The notes beneath the pieces were generated by a model that saw only the letters and a list, made by a program, of their open reading frames with translations, was not told where the DNA came from and searched no databases. Made by a program: the position numbers and the translations under genes. This document shows, piece after piece, positions 13,513 through 17,429 of a stretch of DNA of 64,000 nt (the first letter of the stretch is position 1; each line of letters begins with the position of its first letter). The DNA lies in the NCBI RefSeq assembly GCF_054482595.1, contig NZ_CM137008.1. One strand, written 5' to 3'.

Positions 13513-13734
<222 letters not shown>

Positions 13735-13773
13735 TTGTTTTACCGCCTGATGGGCGAAGAGAAAGAACGAGTA

Positions 13774-13803
13774 AAAGGTCGGTTTAACCGGCCTTTTTAT
13801 TTT
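13774..13803 (+). terminator. Rho-independent terminator after infA
   Basis: Hairpin aaggtcggtt/aaccggcctt followed by a T-run. Confidence 0.6.
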
Positions 13804-13987
13804 GTGATATGTATGAAGTACTTTGGAAGTATAAGTCCGTAACTTGTCTCGATGTAGATATACTGCACAACTTGTTTACAGTATGAGCAAACAATAATTA
13901 TCATTAAAATTCTTCTTGACCGTTTTACTCCAACTCCCTATAGTAGCGCCCCGTTGCCCCCCATGAGGTCAGGCAACAAAACAATTT

Positions 13988-14075
13988 GGTGAGGTGTCCG
14001 AGTGGCTGAAGGAGCACGCCTGGAAAGTGTGTATACGGCAACGTATCGGGGGTTCGAATCCCCCCCTCACCGCCA
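13988..14075 (+). tRNA. serW: tRNA-Ser (anticodon GGA)
   Basis: GGTGAGGTGTCCGAGTGGCTGAAGGAGCACGCCTGGAAAGTGTG...GGTTCGAATCCCCCCCTCACCGCCA: class II tRNA with long variable arm, GGA anticodon, 3' CCA encoded. Confidence 0.95.
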
Positions 14076-14084
14076 TATTTAAAG

Positions 14085-14117
14085 AAGAGCTCGTACGAAA
14101 GTGCGAGCTTTTTTTTT
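14085..14117 (+). terminator. Rho-independent terminator after serW
   Basis: gagctcgtacgaaagtgcgagc hairpin followed by nine T. Confidence 0.75.
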
Positions 14118-14119
14118 CG

Positions 14120-14268
14120 CATTTTATCTGCCTGTACGGCAGTGAACATGGTGGGCGGGTGGAGTATGTTACCAGTGAATTTCTAAGCTGCCTGTACGGC
14201 AGTGAACGTTCGCTGCAACCGCTAGCCAAGACGGTAGGTTTTTCTAAGCTGCCTGTACGGCAGTGAAC
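14120..14268 (-). CRISPR. Orphan type I-F CRISPR array remnant (3 repeats, 2 spacers of 32-33 bp); no cas genes nearby
   Basis: Three copies of tttctaagctgcctgtacggcagtgaac (reverse complement of the I-F repeat GTTCACTGCCGTACAGGCAGCTTAGAAA) at about 14120-14147 (degenerate 5' part), 14180-14207 and 14241-14268, separated by unique spacers; sits between serW and clpA where the E. coli I-F locus is known to reside. Confidence 0.9.
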
Positions 14269-14420
14269 TCAAATACTACACGTTTAGCCCGTTGTTAATA
14301 AAGCAAAACCATCCCATTCTCCTGCAGCACCCTTTTTTATCCTTACCTTCCAGCAGCACTAATTATCAACAACTTACCTTCACCTCCAAAAATAGGGTTT
14401 TCACCGTTCCACCCCATAAA

Positions 14421-14454
14421 TAAAAAGTCCGTAACCCCTGACGAGATTACGGAC
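14421..14454 (-). terminator. Rho-independent terminator of clpA
   Basis: On the minus strand, hairpin gtccgtaatctcgtcaggggttacggac followed by a T-run, immediately 3' of the clpA stop. Confidence 0.7.
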
Positions 14455-14479
14455 TTCACCAACCTACCTGACAATCAGA

Positions 14480-16756
14480 TTAATGCGCTGCTTCCGCCTT
14501 GTGCTTTTGTGCACTCTGGAATCCGTAAGTCAGCTCATTTTTCTCTTTATCCAGCGCGACGGTGACCTGACCGCCGTCCACCAGCGAACCAAACAGCAGT
14601 TCGTTGGCAAGCGGTTTTTTCAGGTTGTCCTGGATGACACGCGCCATCGGACGTGCGCCCATTGCCCGGTCGTAACCTTTCTCGGCCAGCCAGTTACGCG
14701 CTTCCTGGCTCACTTCCAGAGAAACACCTTTCTGATCCAGCTGAACCTGCAACTCGACGATGAATTTATCCACCACCTGATGGATCACGTCAGTTGACAG
14801 ATGATCGAACCAGATAATGTTGTCGAGACGGTTACGGAATTCCGGTGTAAAGATCTTCTTGATCTCTTCCATCGCATCGGTGCTGTTATCCTGGTGGATA
14901 AGACCAATGGATTTGCGCTCAGTTTCCCGTACCCCGGCGTTAGTGGTCATCACCAGCACCACGTTACGGAAGTCCGCTTTGCGTCCGTTGTTATCGGTCA
15001 GCGTACCGTTGTCCATCACCTGCAACAGAATATTGAACACGTCTGGATGCGCTTTCTCGATTTCGTCCAGCAGCAGCACCGCATGTGGATGCTTGATTAC
15101 CGCATCGGTCAGCAAACCGCCCTGATCAAAACCAACGTATCCCGGAGGCGCACCAATCAGACGGCTGACGGTATGGCGTTCCATATACTCGGACATATCA
15201 AAGCGCAGAAGCTCAATGCCCAACGCTTTCGAAAGCTGTACCGTCACCTCTGTTTTCCCGACCCCGGTAGGACCGGCAAACAGGAACGAACCGACCGGTT
15301 TATGTTCGTGACCTAAACCTGCACGCGCCATCTTAATGGCTTCAGTCAGCGCCTCAATGGCTTTATCCTGACCGAAGACCAGCATTTTCAGGCGATCGCC
15401 GAGGTTTTTCAGGGTATCACGATCACTCTGAGAAACACTCTTCTCTGGAATGCGTGCAATACGGGCCACCACGGACTCAATATCCGCCACATTAACGGTT
15501 TTCTTGCGTTTGCTTACCGGCATCAGGCGTGCGCGAGCGCCCGCTTCGTCGATAACATCAATCGCTTTATCCGGCAGATGACGATCGTTAATGTATTTCA
15601 CCGCCAGCTCTACCGCCGCACGCACCGCTTTTGCGGTATAACGCACGTCGTGGTGCGCTTCATACTTCGGTTTCAGGCCATTGATGATTTGAACAGTTTC
15701 TTCGATCGACGGTTCAGTAATATCAATTTTCTGGAAGCGACGCGCCAGAGCACGGTCTTTCTCGAAAATGTTGCTGAACTCCTGATAGGTTGTCGAACCA
15801 ATTACGCGAATTTTACCGCTGGAGAGCAACGGTTTGATTAGGTTAGCCGCATCGACCTGACCACCAGACGCTGCACCCGCACCGATAATGGTGTGGATCT
15901 CATCAATAAACAGGATGCTGTTAGTGTCCTGCTCCAGCTGCTTGAGCAACGCTTTAAAACGTTTTTCAAAGTCGCCGCGATATTTTGTGCCCGCTAACAG
16001 AGAACCGATATCGAGAGAGTAAATCGTACAGTCAGCCATCACTTCCGGCACATCACCCTGAACAATTCGCCAGGCAAGACCTTCCGCAATCGCAGTTTTA
16101 CCAACACCAGATTCCCCCACCAGCAGCGGGTTGTTTTTACGGCGACGGCAGAGAACCTGAATAGCACGCTCAAGCTCCTTCTCACGACCAATCAGTGGGT
16201 CGATTCCGCCCACACGCGCAAGCTGATTCAGGTTCGTCGTGAAATTCTCCATACGTTCCTCCCCACCAGCTTGTTCTTCGCTGTTTGGCTGGCTGCCAGG
16301 ATCAGAAGACTGTGTCGGCTCGTCTTTACGCGTGCCATGAGAGATAAAGTTCACCACATCGAGACGGCTGACTTCATGTTTACGCAACAGATATGCCGCC
16401 TGCGACTCCTGTTCGCTAAAGATAGCGACCAGAACGTTTGCACCGGTAACCTCATTGCGACCGGAGGACTGGACATGGAAGACCGCACGTTGCAGTACAC
16501 GCTGAAAACTCAGCGTCGGCTGTGTGTCGCGCTCCTCTTCACTGGCAGGCAGAACGGGTGTGGTTTGTTCAATAAAGGCTTCCAGTTCCTGACGGAGCGC
16601 AACCAAATCCACAGAACACGCTTCCAGCGCCTCCCGGGCAGATGGGTTACTGAGCAGCGCCAGTAACAAGTGCTCGACGGTCATAAACTCATGACGGTGC
16701 TCGCGCGCTCTGGCGAAAGCCATATTTAAACTGAGTTCCAGTTCTTGATTGAGCAT
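14480..16756 (-). CDS. clpA: ATP-dependent Clp protease ATP-binding subunit ClpA
   Basis: [24 protein letters not shown]... with two AAA+ modules ([16 protein letters not shown]); ORF-track start trimmed by 5 codons. Confidence 0.96.
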
Positions 16757-16786
16757 AGGCACCTCCCCCAATTTTTATGCCTGCAT

Positions 16787-17107
16787 TCAGGCTTTTTCTA
16801 GCGTACACAGCAATGGATGCTCATTCTCCCTCGCGTACTTGTTCACCATCGCCACTTTGGTTTCTGCAACCTCGGCGGTAAAGACTCCGCAAATGGCCTT
16901 CCCCTGGTAGTGAACAGCGAGCATCAATTGCGTTGCACGTTCTACATCATAAGAAAAGAATTTTTGTAACACGTCAATAACAAACTCCATCGGAGTGTAA
17001 TCATCATTGACTAATATCACTTTATACATAGATGGCGGTTTTAGCGCGTCGCGAACTTTTTCTTCCGCCAGTTGATCAAAGTCCAGCCAGTCGTTCGTTT
17101 TACCCAT
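16787..17107 (-). CDS. clpS: ClpA adaptor protein ClpS
   Basis: 106-aa [46 protein letters not shown]...; directly upstream of clpA. Confidence 0.96.
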
Positions 17108-17429
17108 TGTCAGTTATCATCTTCGGTTACGGTTATCGGCAGAACGCCCTGCCGCTGACAAGAGCTTATTTGCCTGACCAATCTACTCCACATGATAGAT
17201 AACTATCATCTATCGTTGGCATCAGCGACATCTGTCACATTCCTGTCAATAGCGTTAACTGCTTCAAATTTTTGATTCATACCTGCCCCTTGTCCCCTGT
17301 CAAATGCTTGACGGCTCGCCCTAATTCTCTAAATTGTATTTCTAGAGTTGGCGAGGTTTTGAACAGCCCCCTCTCTGACCCCGGTTTATTCCATCTTACT
17401 TGTATAAGATTTGCGAAGGATGTCGAAGC

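Follow-up and report, generated by a model that had tools for sequence, protein, structure and literature searches.

The short CRISPR array located between serW and clpA in the 64,000-nt stretch of Escherichia coli DNA analyzed here (hereafter the window) is the cas-less E. coli array already known as "anti-CRISPR CRISPR3" or orphan CRISPR4. It belongs to this class by its locus, its repeat, its terminal repeat, the lack of cas genes and two spacers that match cas genes of the type I-F system next to the correct protospacer adjacent motif (PAM). Spacer A corresponds to cas1f and spacer B to cas3f. According to the published explanation, such an array constitutes a poised trap against an incoming I-F cas operon, and we infer, with good confidence, that the array plays this role in the present strain as well.

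A repeat search of the sequence yielded three type I-F repeats of 28 nt with a regular start-to-start spacing of 60 and 61 nt, interspersed by two mutually unrelated spacers of 32 nt (A) and 33 nt (B; Table 1). This result confirmed the coordinates and the spacer sequences of a first-pass annotation, in which the element had been read as an orphan I-F array with three repeats and 32-33-bp spacers between serW and clpA. Repeats 1 and 2, which read GTTCACTGCCGTACAGGCAGCTTAGAAA on the minus strand, are 100% identical to the reference, and the terminal repeat is 82% identical. With up to nine substitutions allowed, no further I-F repeat was detected in the 64 kb. A 5-bp stem-loop (CUGCC/GGCAG) was predicted in each of the three repeats, in both the MFE and the centroid folds. 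The first-pass annotation had also described the terminal repeat as degenerate in its first 8 positions, which is accurate for the plus strand; read as transcribed, the repeat has diverged in its final 8 nt (ATAAAATG versus CTTAGAAA in the full repeat), and nucleotides 1-20, with the hairpin and the position at which Cas6f cleaves, are intact. During I-F crRNA processing, Cas6f cleaves within the segment corresponding to these 20 nt, which the maturation of the crRNA of spacer A requires. The diverged 8 nt would provide only the 5′ handle of a next crRNA that does not exist, and therefore both crRNAs could mature. Terminal repeats of the orphan type end in …GGCAGATAAAATG, and those of I-F-positive strains in …GGCAGTATTCACA or …TATTCACA. 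A G-to-A change in the stem of the terminal repeat is present in the copies from K-12, from strain EC190486 (L003) and from a database fragment described below (L008), and is absent from the window.

Table 1 Features of the orphan I-F array and its surroundings (positions in the window)
Feature	Position	Strand	Basis or remark
tRNA-Ser(GGA), flanking gene	13988..14075	+	ARAGORN
serW terminator hairpin, directly abuts the terminal repeat	14089..14119	.	sequence
Terminal repeat, GTTCACTGCCGTACAGGCAG followed by ATAAAATG	14120..14147	-	29.7 bits; predicted hairpin
Spacer A, 32 nt, TTCACTGGTAACATACTCCACCCGCCCACCAT, anti-cas1f	14148..14179	-	matches cas1f codons 33-43
Repeat 2, same sequence as repeat 1	14180..14207	-	CRISPR-DR4; predicted hairpin
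Spacer B, 33 nt, AACCTACCGTCTTGGCTAGCGGTTGCAGCGAAC, anti-cas3f	14208..14240	-	matches cas3f codons 201-212
Repeat 1, leader-proximal, GTTCACTGCCGTACAGGCAGCTTAGAAA	14241..14268	-	CRISPR-DR4, 50.1 bits, E = 8e-11; predicted hairpin
Leader / clpA-array intergenic region, 211 nt	14269..14479	-	leader homology with I-F-positive strains
IHF-consensus match TATCAACAACTTA in the conserved leader core	14364..14376	+	motif scan; leader alignment
clpA terminator inside the leader region	14424-14457		terminator search
clpA, flanking gene, co-directional with the array	14480..16756	-	annotation of a near-identical genome

All three repeats were matched on the minus strand by the Rfam family CRISPR-DR4 (RF01317), the two full repeats agreeing with the consensus at 27 of 28 positions and the terminal repeat matching with E = 1.5e-4, its score lying below the gathering score of the family (35). 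The alignment to the I-F consensus, on which the earlier reading had staked its proposal, hence came out in its favor. A chance repeat, or another element resembling a CRISPR (e.g., a REP-like one), might be suspected from the small number of copies, only three, with the third under the gathering score; we consider this idea refuted by the consensus matches, two of them at E = 8e-11, by the homology of the locus to arrays of 3 to 14 spacers in I-F-positive strains and by spacers that match cas genes with the correct PAM.

The array has clpA on one side and tRNA-Ser/infA on the other, and the orientation of the repeats places its leader on the clpA side. In the alignment, the leader shares homology with the one beside the cas1f-proximal array of the I-F-positive E. 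coli genomes FDAARGOS_1284 (L001) and 2015C-3905 (L002) and of the more divergent Escherichia genome E69 (L007, CP089930.1), with the 25 nt adjoining the first repeat being nearly invariant. In a simple scan of the leader's minus strand, no match to the sigma-70 consensus came up, which does not imply that a promoter is absent. An exact match to the IHF consensus (WATCAANNNNTTR) is located ~100 nt upstream of the first repeat, is conserved in the leader alignment and gives a hint that the leader may have retained an integration signal; the 64 kb contain seven such matches versus 2.9 expected for this low-information motif, so the IHF evidence is weak.

On the serW side, the homology with FDAARGOS_1284 and 2015C-3905 ends at the serW terminator. 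This terminator marks the boundary beyond which the I-F-positive strains carry the genes cas6f-csy3-csy2-csy1-cas3f-cas1f, which in both genomes fill the space from the serW terminator to the array. Three further observations were made in these I-F-positive loci. The second array of the I-F-positive strains, located between infA and tRNA-Ser (L001 2915-3243 in FDAARGOS_1284), has the variant repeat end TCTTCAAA instead of CTTAGAAA, and the tRNA-Ser gene stands between it and cas6f. The 90 nt at 13799-13888 of the window correspond to 618 nt in FDAARGOS_1284. Moreover, a repeat-like element (GTAAACTGCCGTACAGGCAG…) with a complete I-F hairpin lies at L001 7885-7912 and L002 9368-9395, in the 330-bp gap between cas3f and csy1 that separates two cas transcription units, on the strand opposite the cas genes; it may serve as a hairpin for Cas6f binding or for regulation, or as a terminator.

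The first-pass annotation had reported that cas genes are missing from the window, and this was borne out in two ways. When the six I-F Cas proteins of an I-F-positive strain were compared with the 64 kb by tblastn, only weak, chance-level matches were obtained (E >= 0.09). The array itself accounts for two of them, at 14210-14242 (cas3f residues 202-212) and at 14147-14242 (cas1f residues 33-60). The corresponding stretch of E. coli XH990 (NZ_CP019359.1 3082816-3146815), identical to the window except at 3 of 64,000 positions, extends from serS to deoR, and all genes annotated in it are housekeeping genes. Elsewhere in this core region, there are two candidate accessory insertions, namely a truncated pentapeptide-repeat pseudogene in the ybjQ/ybjP interval (window ~36192-37427, corresponding to L005 4192-5427) and a sulfatase plus PTS IIB/IIC cluster in the artJ/rlmC interval (42725-45903, corresponding to L005 10725-13903). 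The locus as such is nearly ubiquitous: the 1-kb region 13700-14700 was matched in 5,425 of 5,426 complete E. coli genomes and the 181-nt array region, in some form, in 5,407 of them, while its exact 181-nt version occurs in fewer than about 140 of the 5,426 as judged from the ranking of the matches.

The identity of the spacers emerged from a BLASTN comparison, as proposed in the first-pass annotation, with the same 5,426 complete E. coli genomes (28 Gb serving as the basis for the E-values). Spacer A matched cas1f at 31 of 32 positions at best (E = 6e-6), its other matches being copies of the array, and spacer B matched cas3f equally at 31 of 32 positions (E = 8e-6), which bears out the earlier suggestion of anti-cas spacers. 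The alleles differ in how closely they are matched. For spacer A, there is a single mismatch at position 4 to the cas1f of the FDAARGOS_1284 type and two, at positions 4 and 10 (30/32), to that of the 2015C-3905 type. For spacer B, the best allele is the 2015C-3905 type, with one mismatch at position 11, whereas the FDAARGOS_1284 type is matched at 28 of 32 positions, with mismatches at positions 2, 11, 19 and 20. A 5′-CC PAM at the leader-proximal end, in crRNA orientation, flanks every one of these cas1f and cas3f protospacers; the PAM of the E. coli I-F system has been defined as GG at the leader-proximal end (PMC3506596). All seven of the seven mismatches are synonymous in the cas reading frames, from which it follows that the spacers are genuinely cas-derived and that chance similarity is ruled out. 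Synonymous differences are the pattern expected if the spacers were copied from a slightly different cas allele. A perfect 32/32 target of spacer A was encountered when species-representative genomes were searched for the PAM plus the spacer with every sixth base left free: it lies, with a CC PAM, in the cas1f gene of E69 (L007 924-955), which shares ~92% DNA identity with the E. coli alleles. No perfect target of spacer B appeared in a metagenome scan with the PAM and every sixth base free; the available E69 locus sequence ends at cas3f codon 24.

No plasmid or phage target came to light in the collections searched. Both spacers, joined by Ns into one query that worked in a local control, gave no match at E <= 10 in PLSDB and INPHARED by BLASTN. 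Exact and every-sixth-base-degenerate scans of IMG/VR returned no match for spacer B. For spacer A, they returned a single one, which we rejected as a viral target because the record is an E. coli clpA-array-serW fragment. This 4,064-nt record (IMGVR_UViG_2534682060_000012, L008), although filed as viral, consists of E. coli chromosome with clpS/clpA, an orphan array and serW. It shares 97.5% identity with window 14076-17213, and the first spacer of its array has a 32/32 match, with a CC PAM, in the cas3f of 2015C-3905. A tblastn search for an Escherichia-type cas1f on plasmids was likewise unproductive, the best candidate being a Photobacterium protein of 64.6% identity, and the spacer sequences were not found in published full texts.

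To describe the distribution of array and cas genes, counts were taken from chimeric queries in which the exact spacer is embedded between the cas flanks on either side. Both cas1f and cas3f are carried by 241 of the 5,426 complete genomes (4.4%). None of the 241 I-F-positive genomes has a perfect target for spacer A, as the number of exact matches was 545 with and without the cas flanks. With regard to cas3f, 40 genomes have an allele one mismatch away from spacer B and 201 a more divergent one (28/32). The spacer-A/cas1f query matched in 786 genomes, at one place in each, and consequently cas1f occurs in none of the 545 genomes with the exact spacer A. The intact I-F operon that could have spoken against an orphan array according to the first-pass annotation is thus found neither at the locus nor in the genomes that carry the exact spacer A. 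Spacer B was matched at two places in 20 genomes. The one of these 20 that was inspected, EC190486, was rejected as a case of co-occurrence with cas3f, since the second place is a tandem-duplicated spacer. Its orphan array (L003 3912-4177) has four spacers, with spacer B in tandem duplicate and spacer A truncated to 28 nt, and shows that both duplication and decay occur within orphan arrays. For three further orphan-array spacers, namely the single spacer of K-12, the third spacer of EC190486 and the first spacer of L008, at least one allele of cas1f or cas3f likewise offers a matching target with a CC PAM. In the I-F operon of FDAARGOS_1284, csy1 is annotated as a pseudogene with an internal stop (L001 6279-7586), and some of the 241 I-F-positive genomes therefore carry inactivated systems.

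These counts also bear on the idea that the array is an ordinary defence array working for an I-F effector, or a compatible one, whose genes lie at another site of the genome or on a plasmid. Plasmid-labelled records within complete E. coli assemblies do contain one match of spacer A and 5 of the 5,839 places at which the array region was matched; PLSDB itself contained none. We nevertheless regard a trans-acting effector as highly improbable, given that a single place was matched in each genome with exact spacer A, which thus lacks an Escherichia-type cas1f, that neither the 64-kb window nor its counterpart in the near-identical genome contains a cas gene, and that both spacers are directed at cas genes and not at phages or plasmids. 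A matching I-F system residing in the same cell would, moreover, target itself.

The comparison with described systems leaves little to distinguish. The array class known as CRISPR3 from Touchon and Rocha and as orphan CRISPR4 from Almendros, Guzman, Garcia-Martinez and Mojica (2016, Nat Microbiol 1:16081) shares with the present array the locus, the repeat, a short array devoid of I-F cas genes, the degenerate terminal repeat, one cas1 spacer and one cas3 spacer, and the CC/GG PAM at the targets; there is no substantive difference. In the study of Touchon and Rocha, spacers 1 and 2 of CRISPR3 were reported to match Ypest Cas1 and Cas3 and to occur where those cas genes are absent (PMC2886076, Touchon & Rocha 2010). 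Native orphan arrays have been described as constitutively expressed, as interfering with plasmids bearing I-F cas genes and as eliciting priming (PMC8616872, summarising Almendros et al. 2016). The statement of the first-pass annotation on orphan arrays with anti-cas spacers agrees with this literature (PMC8616872, PMC2886076). Compared with K-12 MG1655, which has only the cas1f spacer, with an extra change at position 6 and a mutated terminal hairpin, the present strain has both the cas3f and the cas1f spacer, and its array is a relatively well-preserved two-spacer variant. The complete E. coli I-F locus, as in LF82 (PMC3506596), FDAARGOS_1284 and 2015C-3905, has an identical repeat, a homologous leader on the clpA side, the same site and the same PAM. 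It differs by the presence of cas1f, cas3f, csy1-3, cas6f and the second array between infA and tRNA-Ser, all of which are missing from the window, and by spacers directed against plasmids, whereas those of the present array are directed against the system's own genes. Mini-arrays on mobile elements and self-targeting spacers likewise have a spacer against a gene of a defence system and need Cas proteins supplied in trans; the present array differs by its place on the chromosome, its near-universal presence in the species and its aim at its own cognate cas genes.

How the array might act can be outlined as follows. It would be transcribed on the minus strand from the clpA-side leader, and the resident cell would make the pre-crRNA but have no I-F Cas proteins, so that the array would remain silent and do no harm. 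If the DNA of an I-F cas operon entered, newly made Cas6f would cut the pre-crRNA at the three intact repeat hairpins, and the Csy complex would load the two crRNAs and recognize the CC-flanked protospacers in the incoming cas1f and cas3f genes. Cas2-3 would then degrade the incoming DNA, by which the I-F system could not establish itself, and priming might add spacers. This scheme builds on the anatomy and orientation of the array, the homology of its leader, the cas targets with their PAMs, the mutual exclusion with cas1f and the kept processing signals, all of which the sequence analysis shows; from these we infer activity against particular alleles in the present strain.

The position of the mismatches modulates what may be expected of such activity. 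In I-F interference, positions 1-5, 7 and 8 constitute the critical part of the seed, and every sixth base is unpaired. Spacer A has a seed mismatch (position 4) to the target in all 241 I-F-positive complete E. coli genomes, and spacer B has one (position 2), in addition to three others, to the commoner cas3f allele; the lone mismatch of spacer B to the 2015C-3905-type allele (position 11) lies outside the seed. Owing to the seed mismatches, direct interference may be weak against most extant E. coli operons. By the seed rules, interference should be best against operons of the 2015C-3905 type via spacer B and of the E69 type via spacer A, and the effect on the commoner FDAARGOS_1284-type operon would be weaker, perhaps confined to priming. 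If an I-F system arrived by homologous replacement of the clpA-serW locus, this very event would eliminate the array, and protection would then have to rest on residual crRNA. Plasmids or phages with a matching target were not found in PLSDB, INPHARED or IMG/VR.

Part of this evidence would also suit an inert relic, in which the array is the scar left after acquisition of self-targeting spacers and loss of the I-F cas genes, inherited vertically and without present function. The strict exclusion between spacer A and cas1f is compatible with a relic and with an anti-cas trap alike. The absent cas operon would lie precisely at the junction of the terminal repeat and the serW terminator, as expected after a deletion; the spacers have drifted from the extant targets by one to four mismatches, some of them in the seed; decay is visible in several lineages, with the 28-nt spacer A of EC190486, the position-6 change of K-12 and the G-to-A change in the stem in K-12, EC190486 and L008; and neither a consensus promoter in the leader (minus strand) nor a target-bearing mobile element was found. 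On the other hand, the array region is still matched in 5,407 of 5,426 genomes, the leader core and the hairpins are conserved, and experimental interference by native orphan arrays has been reported (PMC8616872). We therefore give the relic a minor but appreciable share of the probability and prefer the anti-cas trap.

The mismatch at position 4 of spacer A deserves separate mention, as this synonymous change is present in the cas1f of all 241 I-F-positive E. coli genomes while E69 retains the perfect target. It is conceivable, albeit improbable in our estimate, that it represents a fixed escape mutation; if so, the mutation would have let the I-F operon spread in E. coli despite the anti-cas arrays, and mobile cas operons would be in an arms race with the orphan arrays. 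Otherwise, the change would reflect simple drift since an acquisition long ago. An accelerated escape evolution of the cas1f protospacer was rejected, with 1-2 differences per 34-nt window compared with a gene-wide mean of 1.3-2.8.

For the present strain, the idea of anti-cas spacers now stands verified by the array coordinates, the target genes with their PAMs and the positions of the mismatches, and the window can be annotated with confidence. Known from a computational description of 2010 and an experimental test of 2016, the phenomenon is by now a curiosity at textbook level, real but ordinary. Its essence is that a bacterium retains a tiny CRISPR array that targets nothing but the cas genes belonging to its own subtype and that would thereby block the re-acquisition of the system.
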